This document shows positions 2,866 through 64,000 of a stretch of DNA of 64,000 bases, piece after piece. Location of the stretch: contig JAZRVS010000129.1 in the NCBI GenBank assembly GCA_045599365.1, positions 1,684 to 65,683 on the forward strand, written 5' to 3'. Position 1 is the first letter of the stretch. Every line of letters begins with the position of its first letter. This DNA comes from Bacteroidales bacterium (GTDB lineage: Bacteria; Bacteroidota; Bacteroidia; Bacteroidales; UBA1715). Under the pieces are notes generated by a model that saw nothing but the letters and a program-made list of their open reading frames with translations, was not told where the DNA came from and did no database searches. The position numbers and the translations under genes were made by a program.

Positions 2866-3089
2866 CTTGGGAAGAGTTATGCGAAAAGGCAAGAGAACTT
2901 GGGTATTGTCTTCATGAAGATGATTTGTTTGACGCACTAGATGGATATGGAAAAGTTTGTTATTTGGAAAAGAGAAACGGAGGCGTTTCGTTTTATGAAA
3001 AAGGAGGTATAGAAACAAATTTTGAAGTATTTGCCGAAAACAGAACTTATGAACAGATGTATGCAATAATGAAAGCATTGGAGGGATAA
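2862..3089 (+). CDS. hypothetical protein, TWEEL...RTYEQMY family (paralog 1)
   Basis: GGGAGG RBS before ATG 2862. MTWEELCEKARELGY...RTYEQMYAIMKALEG is paralogous to the C-terminal half of ORF 3090. Confidence 0.6.
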   Translation: MTWEELCEKARELGYCLHEDDLFDALDGYGKVCYLEKRNGGVSFYEKGGIETNFEVFAENRTYEQMYAIMKALEG

Positions 3090-3524
3090 ATGACAATTAA
3101 AGAAATTGAAATGTTAAGAGAAGAAAATATAAAACTTGCAGAAAAAATTGAAATTTCAAGAGATGCTGTTAGAACACTTAAAGAACAGTGTGATTATTGG
3201 TATTATATAGCAACAAAAGAAAACAATAAGTTAAAATACGAACACTCTCCGTTTTCGTGTTTTAAATGGTTTGGGAAAAAACTTAAAATTAAAACTCCAA
3301 TGACTTGGGAACGACTTGTTGAAAAAGCAGAAAAGATTGGTTACAGGCTCGTTTGTACAATGAACGAAGAACTTTTAGCCAAAGAATATGAAATAGGAAA
3401 ACACCTTGTGTTTAGAAAAAACGGAAAGTTTGAAATTATTTTTCCAGCTCGTTTTCAAGAAACGATATTAAAAGAAAGAACATACGAACAGATGTACGAA
3501 ATTATAAAAGAATTGGAGGATTAA
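3090..3524 (+). CDS. hypothetical protein, coiled-coil N-terminus plus TWERL...RTYEQMY domain (paralog 2)
   Basis: The C-terminal half MTWERLVEKAEKIGY...RTYEQMYEIIKELED matches the whole of ORF 2862. Confidence 0.6.
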   Translation: MTIKEIEMLREENIKLAEKIEISRDAVRTLKEQCDYWYYIATKENNKLKYEHSPFSCFKWFGKKLKIKTPMTWERLVEKAEKIGYRLVCTMNEELLAKEYEIGKHLVFRKNGKFEIIFPARFQETILKERTYEQMYEIIKELED

Positions 3525-5238: not shown

Positions 5239-5646
5239 ATGAAAAAGAAAATTTATTTAAATACGTTGAAAGACGAAGAAGTGATTGAACGGTTGAAAAA
5301 CGGAGGAGTAATCCATTCCGAAGGAAACAATTGTAAAATCAAAATGATGGAAGGTGTGATTGTTACAAAATTTAAAGATGTCACACAATTCGGTATGGGT
5401 TTTACGGTTTATTCACACAACGATTACTACTTTGAGGAAGATGAAAAGTTTGAAATAAAAGAAACAGGTTTGTATAAAACTCGTGACGGAAGAAAAGCGT
5501 TTGTTTATCGTATAGATAAAAATTTATCATTTTCGGTTGATTATTGCATTGAAAACGGTCTATGTGAATCGGCTACTGAATATGGATTTAGTCGTACAAA
5601 ATACTGTGAATGTGATAATGATTTAGTTTCAAAATGGGAGGAATAA
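5239..5646 (+). CDS. hypothetical protein, ETGLYKTRDGRKAFVYR...VSKWEE family (copy 2)
   Basis: Same architecture and C-terminal VSKWEE as ORF 4831. GGGAGG RBS. Confidence 0.6.
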   Translation: MKKKIYLNTLKDEEVIERLKNGGVIHSEGNNCKIKMMEGVIVTKFKDVTQFGMGFTVYSHNDYYFEEDEKFEIKETGLYKTRDGRKAFVYRIDKNLSFSVDYCIENGLCESATEYGFSRTKYCECDNDLVSKWEE

Positions 5647-5651
5647 AATAA

Positions 5652-6089
5652 ATGTGGGGATTTAACATAATAAATGGAGTTGAATTTTTTATTGAAGAAG
5701 GAAGAGAGTTACCTAACTTTTATCCCGAAAGCAAAGTTCCGAGTTGTTTTTGTCCCCACAAAACCATTGGTGAGGCAAAAAAGTGGAATAACGGAGAGAT
5801 TGGAATTTTTTGGAAAAACGGAGGTAAAAACGAAAACATTTTGCAAGACAATGTAACGGCACAACGAAGTGAGATTATTTACACAGGAATGGGTTGTCTG
5901 AAACATGTTGTTCCGTTGTTAAAGTTGACAAATTACATTCCGTTGGTTATATCTGATTTCAAAGTTGACGGAGTTCAAGATAGATTTCTTTTGAAATTAC
6001 AAAATGAAGTTGCTTTGTATGGTAGACCAGTTGTTTTAGTTGGCGATGATTTCACACCGTTGCCACATTTTGTAAAGGTTTTAAAATGA
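5652..6089 (+). CDS. hypothetical protein
   Basis: GGGAGG RBS. Packed ORF with no motif recognised. Confidence 0.55.
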   Translation: MWGFNIINGVEFFIEEGRELPNFYPESKVPSCFCPHKTIGEAKKWNNGEIGIFWKNGGKNENILQDNVTAQRSEIIYTGMGCLKHVVPLLKLTNYIPLVISDFKVDGVQDRFLLKLQNEVALYGRPVVLVGDDFTPLPHFVKVLK

Positions 6090-6235
6090 CACCGATTTTA
6101 TTTATTTGGTTAGTAGTTTGGTTTTTTAGTAAGTTTGAGAGAGAAGAGCCAAGACAAAAATTATTTGTTTATAACGACATCAGTGATGATTTGTTTTTGA
6201 ATGGCGTTTATAGAGTAGGAGATGAATTTAAATGA
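6086..6235 (+). CDS. small membrane protein (49 aa, below ORF-track cutoff)
   Basis: Hand translation MTPILFIWLVVWFFSKFEREEPRQKLFVYNDISDDLFLNGVYRVGDEFK. ATGA overlaps at both ends (6086-6089 and 6232-6235). Confidence 0.5.
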   Translation: MTPILFIWLVVWFFSKFEREEPRQKLFVYNDISDDLFLNGVYRVGDEFK

Positions 6236-6525
6236 CTTGTTTTAGAATGAAAGACGGACGGACAGTTAGGTCGTTTTTAAATAAAGATAGTTCTTATTGT
6301 GCATTTCAAAGACGAATTGAAAAAGGAGATACGATTGAGGAAGCTTTGGAATATGTATCAAAAGAACATAAAAGAGGAAGAGCTTGCTTGGTTTATTTTT
6401 ATCAAGGAAAGCCAATAATTGACATTTGCCGAGAACGTGGTATAAATTATCATACGGTCTATGAGAGAATTCAACGTGGACTTGAAATTAACGAAACTAT
6501 TTTTTATAAGGGGAAATTAAAATGA
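6232..6525 (+). CDS. hypothetical protein, possible HTH
   Basis: RGINYHTVYERIQRGL looks like an HTH recognition helix. Weak call. Confidence 0.45.
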   Translation: MTCFRMKDGRTVRSFLNKDSSYCAFQRRIEKGDTIEEALEYVSKEHKRGRACLVYFYQGKPIIDICRERGINYHTVYERIQRGLEINETIFYKGKLK

Positions 6526-60039: not shown

Positions 60040-62529
60040 ATGATTTTTAGAGAAAATGCTCCAAAATATTGGGATAAAGGATTACCTGTCATTCCGTTAC
60101 ACAAATGGGACGCACTCAACGCTGACGGAAAATCTATGGGAAAAGCTCCTTGTCCTGCTGGCTGGCAGAGATACTCTGACCAAATGCCAGATAAAGAATC
60201 ACAAGAAAAATGGTTGCAACAATTCAGTGAAAACAATATTGGTTTGCCATTGGGGAAACAATCTCGCTGTGTCGCACTTGATATTGATAGTACAAACGAA
60301 GCAGAAATCGCTTTAATTGACACTCTCGTTCCAAAATCAGCTTGGGTTCGTATTGGTAAAAAAGGAAAAGTATTGATGTTTCGTTACAATGGCGAAAAAA
60401 CTTTCCGTATCAAAGACGAATTAGGGAGAACAATCTGCGAGTTACTCTCTTCTGGAACACAAGTGGTGTTGCCTCCATCAATTCACCCAGATACCAAGCA
60501 ACCTTATGTGGCAAACGCAAACTTATATGATGTAGTTGACCAATTACCACCTTTGCCGAAAAATATTGAAACGTTATTACGTTCAGCATTTGAAGAAAGT
60601 TTGGGAATTAAATTAAACAATTCTGGTTGGACACGAACAGTTGACTACGTGTCACAAGGCTCTCGTGACGTTAAAATGACTTCTGTGGCTGGCGTTTATG
60701 CACAAGCAGTTCTTCGTGGTGAAGTAACATTAAAAGAAGCTATGGATATGTTAGTTGCTTGGTGCTCAACTCAAGTGGAACAAGTGTCAGGTGACCCTGT
60801 TGACGTAAACAAAGGTATCAAAAATCTCGTAAAATTTGTTATGAAAGATGTTCTCGGACCAAAAAAGAAGGTATTGCCAAAAGGCTGGGACGTTGACTTG
60901 AGTGACAAAGAAAAACAAGAACTCGGAATTGACGCAAAAGAAGACATTGAAAGCTGGGACTTTGAAAAAGTGAAACAATATGTCAAAGAACATCTTGAGC
61001 CAACTGAATTAAACTCAGTAGAAAGAAGTAATGTCATTGAATACGTTGTTGAACGAATTGCTCGCTCAAATATGTCAGTTATCCAAGAAGAACAATCAAT
61101 AAAACACTTGGTTAACACAAACAAAGACAGCATTTCAGTTCCGGCTTTAAGAAAACGCATTATTGAACTTCGTTCAAACGGAGTTAGTGGCTTAAATCAC
61201 ACAGAAATCGCAAAAGCTGTGTTAAAAGACATAAATGACCGTATTCCAGACGAGGACCAATACGAAGTACAACGTGAATACAACTCGATTCGCTTTTGGC
61301 GTGACCAATTCTGGAAATGGGGTGGTTCACACTGGGAAACATTGGAAAAAAATGAAATTTTAAAAGAAATTTCTTCAGAATATGGATATTTACCAGCTGC
61401 AAAGAAAAACTCCGACCATTTGGGAATTTACAACGTTATGAAATCTCTTGTTGACCAACAAATTTGTGATGTTGAAACAAAAGGTGTGAATTTCTCAAAC
61501 GGATTTGTTGATGTGAACGGTGAAATACACAAACACGACAAAAAATATGGTTGCACATACACGTTGCCTTATCCATATTCACCAGAAAAAGCAAGTTTGG
61601 ACAATTCACCGAAATTCAAAAAGTTGCTTCAATCATATTGGAACACCGACTCTGACTACGAAGACAAAGTTAAAGCATTACAAGAGGCTTTTGCAGTCAC
61701 TATCTTCGGATATGGACCATCCTTTGCACGAGCTGTATTGCTTTACGGAATTGCTGGGTCAGGGAAAAGCCAAGTGTTGACAGTATTATCAAATTTATTG
61801 CCAACTGAGGTAACATCTTGCGTCACACCATACGATTTTGACAATGGCTTTTATTTAGCGTCTTTATCCACTTCATATTTAAACATTTGTGGAGAATTAG
61901 ACGAAACAAAATCAATTCCAAGTGCTGTTTTCAAACAAGTAATTGACGGAAGTGAGCTTGAAACGTCTTACAAATTCGGACAAAACTTCAAGTTCAGACC
62001 AAAAGCAACACATTGGTTTGCGTCAAATCACTTACCAAAATCAAAAGATACCACAGAAGGTTTCAATAGACGTTGGTTGGTGCTTGAATTCAACAATGTT
62101 GTTAAAGAAGAAGACAAAATCATTGATATTGGCAGAATAATTGCAGCTGAAGAACGTGAAAGCATTGTTGCGTGGGCAATTTCCACAATGAAAGAAGTTC
62201 GTGACAGAGGTGATTACACATTACCAGACAGCCATTTGAGAATTGTATCTGATATGATTTCTCAAAATAACTCCGTTTTTTTCTATCTGACTTCGGAGGA
62301 AGGACCGAAGAAAGACCAGAATTCCTCAATACAAATAGATACGCTGTACGAAAGTTATCGGAATTTCTGTTACGCCAAAGCAGATGCAAAGCCTGTGGGA
62401 CGGAGGAAATTCTCCTATACGCTAAGAGAACAGGGTATTTTGTACGGCTTCTCAGTGAACAACTTGTTGGTGAATGGACTCACACTGGACAAGGACAAAG
62501 GGACACCTGTCAGAAGGGAAAAAAGATAA
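60040..62529 (+). CDS. bifunctional primase-polymerase (prim-pol) / SF3 helicase (P4-D5 type)
   Basis: N-terminal LPVIPL...GKAPCPAGWQ, VALDIDS and LPPSIHPDT..PY (prim-pol). C-terminal Walker A GIAGSGKSQ and Walker B-like NICGELDE (SF3). Confidence 0.9.
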   Translation: MIFRENAPKYWDKGLPVIPLHKWDALNADGKSMGKAPCPAGWQRYSDQMPDKESQEKWLQQFSENNIGLPLGKQSRCVALDIDSTNEAEIALIDTLVPKSAWVRIGKKGKVLMFRYNGEKTFRIKDELGRTICELLSSGTQVVLPPSIHPDTKQPYVANANLYDVVDQLPPLPKNIETLLRSAFEESLGIKLNNSGWTRTVDYVSQGSRDVKMTSVAGVYAQAVLRGEVTLKEAMDMLVAWCSTQVEQVSGDPVDVNKGIKNLVKFVMKDVLGPKKKVLPKGWDVDLSDKEKQELGIDAKEDIESWDFEKVKQYVKEHLEPTELNSVERSNVIEYVVERIARSNMSVIQEEQSIKHLVNTNKDSISVPALRKRIIELRSNGVSGLNHTEIAKAVLKDINDRIPDEDQYEVQREYNSIRFWRDQFWKWGGSHWETLEKNEILKEISSEYGYLPAAKKNSDHLGIYNVMKSLVDQQICDVETKGVNFSNGFVDVNGEIHKHDKKYGCTYTLPYPYSPEKASLDNSPKFKKLLQSYWNTDSDYEDKVKALQEAFAVTIFGYGPSFARAVLLYGIAGSGKSQVLTVLSNLLPTEVTSCVTPYDFDNGFYLASLSTSYLNICGELDETKSIPSAVFKQVIDGSELETSYKFGQNFKFRPKATHWFASNHLPKSKDTTEGFNRRWLVLEFNNVVKEEDKIIDIGRIIAAEERESIVAWAISTMKEVRDRGDYTLPDSHLRIVSDMISQNNSVFFYLTSEEGPKKDQNSSIQIDTLYESYRNFCYAKADAKPVGRRKFSYTLREQGILYGFSVNNLLVNGLTLDKDKGTPVRREKR

Positions 62530-62531
62530 TC

Positions 62532-62636
62532 GTTAAAAAAGAAAGAGAAAAGGATGAAAACATCTCGGAACTTGGTAAGTGTTAAAAAAAGAAAGAGAAA
62601 AGGATGAAAACATCTCGGAACTTGGTAAGTGTTAAA
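62532..62636 (+). repeat. tandem duplication 49 + 50 bp, plus a 6-bp third start
   Basis: The unit gttaaaaaa(a)gaaagagaaaaggatgaaaacatctcggaacttggtaagt occurs at 62532-62580 and 62581-62630. The copies differ by one A. Confidence 0.95.
62554..62607 (+). CDS. uORF1 (17 aa) created by repeat copy 1
   Basis: AAAAGG then ATG. MKTSRNLVSVKKRKRKG. Its stop TGA overlaps the ATG of uORF2 (ATGA). Confidence 0.35.
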   Translation: MKTSRNLVSVKKRKRKG

Positions 62637-62693
62637 CCAGCAAGTAACAAAGAACTTGAACTAATAGAAAAAAGAAAGGGAAATAAGTTATGA
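62604..62693 (+). CDS. uORF2 (29 aa) created by repeat copy 2
   Basis: MKTSRNLVSVKPASNKELELIEKRKGNKL. Its stop overlaps the methyltransferase ATG (ATGA at 62690-62693). Confidence 0.4.
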   Translation: MKTSRNLVSVKPASNKELELIEKRKGNKL

Positions 62694-63484
62694 CATTAGA
62701 AATTATAGAATATATCAGAGAACAGGGAGGCAATCTCCCTGTTCAGGAAGCCAACTCACAATTATATAACGGAGATTGCTTTGAAATTATGGAGGAAATG
62801 ATACAAAAAGGCGTTAAAGTTGACGCAATTATAACATCACCTCCATATAATATGAATTTACGTGTCAGAAAAGGAAAATATGTGAGTCGCTGTGGATATA
62901 AAGAATCCGTAAATGAATTCTCAACAAAATACAAAAACTTTTCAGACGATTTGCCAATGGACAAATACTTTGAGCAACAAAAAGAATTTTTAACAAAAGC
63001 ATTAACATTGTCGGACATTGTTTTTTATAATATTCAAATGATTACTGGAAACAAACCAGCATTGTTCAAACTTCTCGGAGAATTTTCAGACAAAATTAAA
63101 GAAGTAATTATATGGAACAAAGGCTATGCTCAACCAGCTATGATGTCTAAAATGTTGAATTCTCAATTTGAATTTATTTTTGTACTCCAGAATAGCAAAC
63201 CTTATAACAGAGCCTTTGATGTTTGCAATTTTGCTCGTGGAACTGAAACAAATGTGTGGGATATAAAAAGAGAACGAAACACAAAACACAAAGCCTCTTT
63301 TCCAGTTGAGCTAGTTGAACGTATTTTGAGAAATTTTACAACAGAAAATTCAACTGTGCTTGACCCATTTATGGGCTCTGGAACAACAGGTGTCGCTTGC
63401 AAGAATTTGAATCGTAATTTTATCGGAATAGAATTGGATAAAGAATATTATCAAATAGCTAAAAAGAGCATTGAGATGAGATGA
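62690..63484 (+). CDS. beta-class DNA methyltransferase (SPPY type, N4-cytosine or N6-adenine)
   Basis: Motif IV IITSPPY, motif I LDPFMGSGTTG. The C-terminal ~40 aa nearly match those of ORF 16117. Confidence 0.9.
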   Translation: MTLEIIEYIREQGGNLPVQEANSQLYNGDCFEIMEEMIQKGVKVDAIITSPPYNMNLRVRKGKYVSRCGYKESVNEFSTKYKNFSDDLPMDKYFEQQKEFLTKALTLSDIVFYNIQMITGNKPALFKLLGEFSDKIKEVIIWNKGYAQPAMMSKMLNSQFEFIFVLQNSKPYNRAFDVCNFARGTETNVWDIKRERNTKHKASFPVELVERILRNFTTENSTVLDPFMGSGTTGVACKNLNRNFIGIELDKEYYQIAKKSIEMR

Positions 63485-63487
63485 GTG

Positions 63488-63595
63488 CTTGGAGCTGGTG
63501 TTGGTGGCAAGTGGTGAGTGCCCAGCTCAAAATAAGCTGCTCCAAGTAGTAAGTGCCAAGTGCCCAGCTCCAAGTTCCCATACGCTTGGAGCTGG
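63488..63595. repeat. five copies of the 11-mer CTTGGAGC(T/A)G(G/C) in alternating orientation
   Basis: Forward copies at 63488-63498 and 63585-63595. Reverse copies at 63522-63528 (partial), 63536-63546 and 63564-63574. The region is locally GC-rich. Confidence 0.85.
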
Positions 63596-63690
63596 CACAC
63601 TTGAAAATCAAAAATTGGGTCGGTTGGTGTGAGGGAGTGGGTTGGGAAGTTATCCTGTTTTTTCGGTATATTTTAGGGATGGGCTTTTTT

Positions 63691-63730
63691 TAACTAGGTG
63701 CACAACCTAGTTATTTTTTTTTATTTTTTA
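63691..63730 (+). terminator. rho-independent terminator
   Basis: TAACTAGGT-gcaca-ACCTAGTTA hairpin followed by a long T-rich tract. Confidence 0.75.
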
Positions 63731-63741
63731 TAAAAAACATC

Positions 63742-63770
63742 TTGACAATTTAAAAAAAAAGTGATATAGT
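63742..63770 (+). promoter_or_regulatory. sigma70-type promoter
   Basis: TTGACA 63742-63747, 17 nt, TGaTATAGT 63762-63770. Confidence 0.65.
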
Positions 63771-63810
63771 TAATATATCAAAAGGCAATAAAGCCTTTTG
63801 ATATATTAAC
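63769..63810. promoter_or_regulatory. 18-bp perfect palindrome (operator or leader hairpin)
   Basis: GTTAATATATCAAAAGGC-aataaa-GCCTTTTGATATATTAAC. It begins inside the -10 hexamer. Confidence 0.7.
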
Positions 63811-63837
63811 AAAAAAAAAAAAAAAAAAAAAAAAAAA
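63811..63837 (+). repeat. A27 homopolymer
   Basis: 27 consecutive A counted in the sequence, between the palindrome and the AAGGAG RBS. Confidence 0.95.
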
Positions 63838-63853
63838 CATTAAGGAGTCCAAC

Positions 63854-64000
63854 ATGACTATATACTTTATAAATAAAGAAACCATTGCAAAAATTGAAAA
63901 AACAACAAAAACCACAAGTTTTAATGCGCTTGTAACCTATGCGCTAGACTCTAAAAAAAGACTTGCTGACAACAAAGATTTTAACAACGATTTTAAAAAA
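63854..64000 (+). CDS. hypothetical protein, 3'-truncated by the window end
   Basis: AAGGAG RBS at 63842-63847, ATG at 63854. Open to the last base (MTIYFINKETIAKIEKTTKTTSFNALVTYALDSKKRLADNKDFNNDFKK...). Confidence 0.55.
   Translation, partial: MTIYFINKETIAKIEKTTKTTSFNALVTYALDSKKRLADNKDFNNDFKK

Follow-up and report, generated by a model that had tools for sequence, protein, structure and literature searches.

The window analysed here is a 64-kb stretch of DNA comprising bases 1684-65683 of contig C129, which comes from an assembly of 196 contigs and 2.86 Mb. C129 measures 68,118 bp at 33.8% GC and has the gene content of a tailed phage, with genes for a GpA-type large terminase, an HTH_17/MerR-like protein, a 140-aa protein, a primase-helicase and a DNA methyltransferase (MTase) following one another in that order. 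The first 141 bases of the contig are identical to its last 141, as expected of a genome of ~67,977 bp that was assembled as a circle from 141-base words. The primase-helicase gene ends in a TAA at 62527-62529, and between this stop codon and the MTase lies a short spacer occupied by two copies of a 50-bp unit and two mini-ORFs, uORF1 and uORF2. The features of the locus are collected in Table 1.

The phage contig was binned into the 196-contig MAG, and it may have been placed there wrongly. A CRISPR-spacer link to a host was sought and yielded a single 32-bp match, on contig C56, that lies outside any repeat array. The long ORFs of other contigs (the five largest) show no enrichment of Shine-Dalgarno (SD) sequences (-4.9, versus -4.3 in a matched random control). 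The phage contig, by contrast, has strong SDs (median -8.9 kcal/mol) and a sigma-70-type promoter, TTGACA-17-TATAGT, at 63742-63770.

Table 1. Features of the primase-methyltransferase locus (window coordinates) and repeats at the equivalent position in related phage contigs (coordinates of each contig).
Feature	Position	Strand	Basis and remarks
Primase-helicase, 829 aa	60040..62529	+	ORF; Pfam Prim-Pol 4.4e-18, DUF5906 3.3e-13, D5_N 4.9e-8; upstream cistron of the operon
Primase-helicase/MTase spacer, 160 bp	62530..62689	+	110 bp if the duplication is removed
Repeat unit 1, 50 bp	62535..62584	+	TRF and exact pattern match
uORF1, 17 codons	62554..62607	+	Created by the duplication; translation MKTSRNLVSVKKRKRKG, then stop; SD -6.5 kcal/mol
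Repeat unit 2, 50 bp, identical to unit 1	62585..62634	+	TRF and exact pattern match
uORF2, 29 codons	62604..62693	+	Presumed ancestral mini-ORF; translation MKTSRNLVSVKPASNKELELIEKRKGNKL, then stop
Junction microhomology	62631..62636	+	AA (62635-36) in the 50-bp register; third GTTAAA in the 49/50-bp register
MTase SD, AGAAAGGGA	62673..62681	+	8 nt before the ATG, within uORF2; anti-SD duplex -9.4 kcal/mol
Orphan DNA MTase, 264 aa, beta-class N6A/N4C	62690..63484	+	PF01555, phrog_67
Repeats in the relatives' slot	L018 6446-6494, 7311-7443; L019 6735-6768; L020 6448-6481; L022 5920-5979		

The methyltransferase and its flanks

The MTase aligns with the whole of the N6_N4_Mtase profile PF01555 (positions 1-221 of 221, E = 9.9e-39), and matches phrog_67 at 2.1e-56 and the adenine MTase structures 5HFJ and 5HEK at ~6e-29. 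Both the catalytic (S/D)PPY motif, here SPPY at residues 50-53, and the AdoMet motif FxGxG are present, and SPPY and FMGSGTTG are invariant in the alignment of homologues; this combination is that of beta-class enzymes of the orphan phage type, and no endonuclease gene was found adjacent to the MTase. SPPY is seen more typically in N4-cytosine enzymes, whereas the closest structure solved, 5HFJ, belongs to an adenine MTase, and the enzyme may modify either base.

Homologues of the MTase number more than 7,900, the best being ~70% identical, and they occur in many unrelated phage contexts. The gene upstream of a homologue often overlaps it, as in the ATGA overlaps with a 55-aa ORF in contig L003 and with a 99-aa ORF in contig L027. 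A leader common to the closest homologues was looked for and discarded, as their upstream contexts all differ. The possibility of a start codon further downstream was likewise rejected, since the sequence ahead of the conserved LYNGDC motif offers no other ATG, GTG or TTG in frame. The N-terminal extension of ~22 aa (MTLEIIEYIREQGGNLPVQEAN, 62690-62755) is absent in most homologues and variable where present.

On the 3' side of the MTase is a 369-bp non-coding stretch (63485-63853) in which inverted and direct repeats (GCTTGGAGCTGG / CCAGCTCCAAG) are succeeded by a terminator hairpin at 63691-63713 and by the promoter at 63742-63770, which is a strong one. Next come a palindrome, an uninterrupted tract of 27 A residues at 63811-63837, and an AAGGAG followed by an ATG.

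A perfect 50-bp tandem duplication in the spacer

The spacer contains a tandem array that TRF placed at 62535-62636, with a period of 50, 2.0 (2.04) copies, 100% matches, 0% indels and a score of 204. Exact matching finds two adjoining occurrences of the 50-mer AAAAAAGAAAGAGAAAAGGATGAAAACATCTCGGAACTTGGTAAGTGTTA and no more, against 0 expected from 100 dinucleotide-preserving shuffles. Within the 64-kb window there is no second repeat of comparable quality, and no further copy of the unit was found elsewhere across the 2.86-Mb assembly. Unit 1 comprises an A6 run, an SD-like stretch AGAAAGAGAA (62540-62549), an ATG at 62554 and codons 1-10 of a mini-ORF; the SD-like stretch and the ATG recur in unit 2 at 62590-62599 and 62604, respectively.

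An earlier note on this DNA had described two head-to-tail copies in the 160-bp gap, had called the duplication recent, and had pointed to a third copy beginning with gttaaa. All of this was confirmed: the copies are evident both in the TRF array and in the exact matches of the 50-mer, the gttaaa lies at 62631-62636, and since the copies are 100% identical, with zero substitutions between them, the duplication is indeed recent. The further statement that the copies are identical except for one extra A depends on how the same letters are divided. In a 49/50-bp register the copies run from 62532 to 62580 (49 bp, with A6) and from 62581 to 62630 (50 bp, with A7), followed by gttaaa, and here the statement holds; in the 50-bp register it does not, as the two copies are identical and the A7 run at 62584-62590 is simply the final A of unit 1 joined to the A6 of unit 2.

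In either register the array has contiguous, head-to-tail copies with microhomology at their boundaries, as expected of a tandem duplication. The boundary microhomology in the 50-bp register is AA, at 62535-36, 62585-86 and 62635-36, and in the 49/50-bp register it is GTTAAA, at 62532, 62581 and 62631. Reversible microhomology-mediated tandem duplications (MTDs) have been described (PMC8639346; bioRxiv 10.1101/2020.03.03.972455). The spacer array resembles these MTDs in being a perfect head-to-tail repeat of tens of base pairs with identical short ends (AA, or GTTAAA three times), and like them it would be expected to revert easily. It departs from them in having a period of 50 bp with 6-bp microhomologies spaced 49 bp apart. 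This offset calls for either of two histories. In the first, a single 50-bp duplication would have occurred through the 2-bp microhomology AA; in the second, a 49-bp duplication would have taken place between the GTTAAA at 62532 and its ancestral counterpart at 62581, and the A run would then have gained one A by slippage.

The contig is a product of metagenome assembly, and a phage contig inside a 196-contig MAG invites the question of whether the array is an assembly artefact or has been given the wrong copy number, the true genome having one copy or some other number. We consider this very improbable. The junction, in which GTGTTA is followed by AAAAAAG to form the A7 run, is impossible to obtain from a single-copy genome, and the contig ends are 3.8 kb away from the array. 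In addition, the terminal overlap of 141 bp points to assembly with 141-base words (the relatives' contigs carry names of the form k141_, in line with assembly at k=141), and these are longer than the 102-bp array. Since a word of that length can span the entire array, an artefact of copy number would be unlikely.

Mini-ORFs linked by ATGA overlaps

The 17-codon and 29-codon ORFs that the earlier note had reported, joined by two stop/start overlaps of the ATGA type, were recovered in the translations. The TGA of uORF1 lies on the ATG of uORF2 at 62604-62607, and the TGA of uORF2 lies on the ATG of the MTase at 62690-62693. Each repeat unit does carry, as had been proposed, a purine-rich, RBS-like stretch ahead of an ATG; its pairing energy of -6.5 kcal/mol beats that of 96% of random positions and is weaker than that of 79% of phage genes.

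The single-A difference between copies had been held responsible for bringing uORF1 into the frame in which it stops on the ATGA. This claim does not survive a change of register, and amounts to saying that the period is 50, a number of the form 3n+2. When an ATG followed by an A is duplicated with such a period (50 + 1 = 51 = 17 x 3), the stop codon necessarily falls on the next ATGA. The relay geometry is thus a by-product of arithmetic and not of design. This is borne out by variants of the spacer constructed in silico. With a single copy, the 29-codon ORF stands alone ahead of the MTase and is joined to it by the ATGA; with two copies, a 17-codon ORF precedes it, again ATGA-linked; and with three copies, there are ORFs of 17, 17 and 29 codons with every link an ATGA. 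Shortening the A run at the junction to A6 extends uORF1 to 26 codons, ending at a TAA within uORF2, and lengthening it to A8 fuses uORF1 and uORF2 in frame into an ORF of 46 codons that still ends on the ATGA of the MTase. Across all of the copy-number and A-run variants tested, uORF2, its junction with the MTase and the RBS of the MTase are unaltered.

Overlaps of this kind are routine in the phage. In a crude ORF-based gene set (94 ORFs with 85 same-strand junctions), 9 of the 85 junctions are of the ATGA type, 7 are of the TAATG type and 16 overlap otherwise.

The presence of a mini-ORF in the spacer is harder to attribute to accident. Short ORFs (10-59 codons) that begin with ATG and have an SD scoring -6.5 or better arise at a rate of 0.26 per kb per strand, which gives an expectation of ~0.03 for such an ORF in the 110-bp ancestral spacer. 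The 29-codon ORF is therefore probably not a chance product, and some translational coupling from it into the MTase is plausible. It may be a mini-gene or the leftover start of a gene, with about even odds. No family or homologue of uORF2 was found in Pfam, PHROGs or the retrieved relatives. The mini-ORF ATG at 62554 is in the same frame as the primase TAA, 27 nt downstream of it and with no intervening stop codon, so that hypothetical readthrough of the TAA would run the primase into the mini-ORF.

A variable slot downstream of the primase in related phages

The nearest relatives of the primase are ~70-73% identical at the amino acid level (73% over residues 400-829) and are encoded in phage contigs of 69-74 kb. 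Their upstream gene order matches that of C129, with a terminase, a 151-aa protein, an HTH protein, a 141-aa protein and the primase. The genes that follow the primase differ. An identical 827-aa primase, P0003, is found in four contigs (L018-L021, 5485-8484), and the post-primase slot of these contigs contains two to four differing genes, drawn from sets that include unknown proteins of 89-148 aa, DUF3310 proteins of 177-394 aa, a DPPY N6_N4 MTase and an MT-A70 MTase. Contig L022 has ~860 bp of non-coding DNA (5491-6349) between the primase and the next called gene, and in L031 the primase is followed by 395 bp without a called gene (3020-3414), comprising a promoter, a terminator and G-rich non-coding DNA. 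In three independent assemblies, the contig breaks 12-395 bp past the primase stop.

The slot also contains tandem repeats (Table 1). A 15-bp unit, AAGAAAACGTTAAGG, within a DUF3310 gene is present in 3.3 copies in one phage and 2.3 copies in a near-identical one, and the relatives' module additionally contains a perfect 10-bp unit, AAAGCAAACC, in 13.3 copies and a perfect 7-bp unit, CTAGACA, in 8.6 copies. The MTase gene is an accessory cassette in a recombination-prone and slippage-prone slot. Given that the slot is variable and that its repeats change copy number, the 50-bp duplication is one more event of the same sort.

With the duplication removed, uORF2 would start 24 nt past the primase stop. 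In the relatives, the next gene starts 21-27 nt past the primase stop and is preceded by an AAAGGAG-type SD, a position that matches that of the mini-ORF. We also asked whether the 29-codon ORF could be what remains of the N-terminus of the relatives' DUF3310 protein (MDKSQNWSPVLN...), and rejected this for want of evidence: BLASTP gave no alignment, and tblastn and blastn-short gave only chance-level matches.

Comparison with relatives lent no backing to the leader that the earlier note had envisaged, as neither the spacer nor its peptides were present in any relative or database sequence searched. A near-identical genome with a single copy was also sought, and none turned up in these collections. 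Exact patterns were not found in IMG/VR or in JGI metagenome contigs, and a blastn search against INPHARED phages returned just an unrelated 77-bp match. In 24 genomes of the MAG's family, there was no match besides the window's own genome. A search for the primase in GTDB genome contigs and IMG/VR found nothing, and the 90%-identity clusters of the primase and of the MTase have a single member each. Across Pfam, PHROGs, the retrieved relatives, IMG/VR, JGI, INPHARED and the same-family genomes, the uORFs thus show no conservation.

The methyltransferase has its own ribosome-binding site

According to the earlier note, the MTase might be translated through a relay, in which termination and reinitiation at the successive mini-ORFs are needed to reach it, and repeat copy number or A-run length could then tune or switch an anti-restriction enzyme. 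Such a scheme would resemble a contingency locus. The two ATGA overlaps are real, the SD-like stretch at each mini-ORF start stands above 96% of random positions, the mini-ORF has the low chance expectation given above, and the perfect 50-bp repeat and the A6/A7 runs are mutable sequence. Against such control, the MTase is preceded, at good spacing, by an independent SD (AGAAAGGGA). Its energy of -9.4 kcal/mol is slightly stronger than the phage-gene median of -8.9 kcal/mol. These energies assume a canonical 16S 3' tail, and no 16S 3' end was found in the assembly; they were scored for 86 long phage ORFs, and since the median of their best energies is -8.9 kcal/mol as compared with -1.5 kcal/mol for random positions, the phage is clearly SD-reliant. 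The segment from the SD to the ATG of the MTase has a predicted unpaired probability of 0.61 in the one-copy and the two-copy mRNA alike, and its predicted accessibility is therefore unaltered by the duplication. Reliance of the MTase on termination and reinitiation is not supported by these values.

The minimum free energy of the spacer RNA, -18 kcal/mol, compares with a shuffle mean of -17.35 kcal/mol (z = -0.21), so that there is no significant fold, and no alternative hairpins were found. No promoter-like or terminator-like site and no Rfam match was found in the spacer. Three Rfam matches elsewhere in 62300-64000 were considered as a known RNA element and set aside, having E values of 0.2-0.5 and scores far below the gathering score. 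Because the spacer lacks a promoter and a terminator and the MTase has its own SD, the MTase would be co-transcribed with the primase and would load ribosomes itself.

Reinitiation at the overlapping stop and start codons of polycistronic bacterial and phage operons has been studied (PMC2268962). The stop/start geometry of ATGA and TAATG coupling in operons is present here twice running, within a single mRNA whose cistrons are not separated by a promoter or terminator. Where coupling is of the classic dependent type, no accessible SD serves the downstream start itself, whereas here the MTase and uORF2 each have one, and so, to judge from the sequence, coupling would be optional. ATGA coupling may, according to the predicted energies and accessibilities, add to MTase translation without being required.

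Translational attenuation by leader peptides is known from the rRNA methyltransferase genes ermC and ermB, where drug-stalled ribosomes switch alternative hairpins that hide the RBS. The present locus likewise has a short leader ORF directly upstream of a methyltransferase gene, but the enzyme is a DNA methylase, the spacer RNA has no hairpins that would sequester the RBS (z = -0.21), which according to the prediction is open. In phasevarions, many units of 1-7 nt lie in an ORF or promoter, and changes in their length toggle the reading frame or the promoter spacing. Mutable repeat DNA at a DNA MTase gene is common to both; the unit here, in contrast, is 50 bp, is present twice and lies upstream of the gene in a promoter-less spacer, and the MTase ORF and its RBS stay undisturbed in all length variants tested. 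The proposed copy-number or A-run switch has no OFF state, because uORF2, its junction with the MTase and the RBS of the MTase come through every tested variant unchanged.

Four results thus contradict the functional reading, namely the SD of the MTase, the behaviour of the in-silico variants, the lack of RNA structure and the failure of any relative searched to conserve the leader or the repeat, and the ATGA overlaps on which it was built are generic in this genome. We regard a relay that the MTase needs, and that copy number or A-run length tunes, as improbable in any form, including that of a modest quantitative effect on MTase translation.

The 50-bp units could also be duplicated protein-binding sites, either iterons of a replication origin or an operator. 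Their position directly 3' of the primase-helicase gene would suit such a role, and the spacer has three occurrences of GAACTTG along with an inverted CAAGT that lies between copies. Origin iterons are typically several short, diverged repeats, accompanied by AT-rich DNA and keeping their position among relatives, whereas just two identical and contiguous 50-mers are seen here, which are the signature of a fresh duplication. The 21-27-bp spacers of the relatives are repeat-free at the same position, and there is no promoter in the spacer for an operator to control. These features do not describe a replication-origin iteron array, and we hold a binding-site origin of the units to be extremely improbable.

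Discussion

The evidence presented here makes it likely that the spacer records a recent and near-neutral 50-bp tandem duplication that arose by slippage or through microhomology. A single event of replication slippage or microhomology-mediated duplication would have taken place in an accessory-gene slot of a circularly assembled phage genome of ~68 kb. Before this event, the locus would have had the tight packing of a phage genome, in which the primase stop was followed by 24 nt containing an SD, the mini-ORF and its ATGA overlap with the MTase. The orphan MTase gene would have been acquired, with the mini-ORF filling the gap between it and the primase. The duplicated segment would then have consisted of the ribosome-binding stretch, the ATG and the initial 10 codons of the 29-codon mini-ORF. 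We infer the slippage mechanism, the neutrality of the duplication and the translation of the mini-ORFs.

Since the MTase has a strong SD of its own and the junction of the 29-codon ORF with it is unaltered, MTase expression is predicted to be little affected. The additional ribosome-loading site could modestly change the level of the enzyme. The duplication would be near-neutral and transient, as perfect 50-bp tandem copies are expected to collapse readily. If the 49-bp duplication came first and the slip in the A run second, the second mutation would have restored the stop on the ATGA, which could be a hint of selection.

A bolder proposal is that a reversible, microhomology-mediated polymorphism in copy number acts through ATGA-coupled, ribosome-loading mini-ORFs to grade methylation and escape from restriction across a phage population. 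To our knowledge, no translational dosage dial made from a long tandem unit, as opposed to a simple-sequence repeat, has been described, and we judge its operation here to be highly improbable.

As found, the duplication is of little import, being a single new structural mutation in an uncultured phage, at an accessory slot whose contents turn over fast. Its main use is to illustrate that chained mini-ORFs arise automatically once an 'SD-ATGA' start is tandemly duplicated. Were stable copy-number heterogeneity tied to methylation to prove true, however, the locus would represent a new way for a phage to tune an anti-restriction enzyme.
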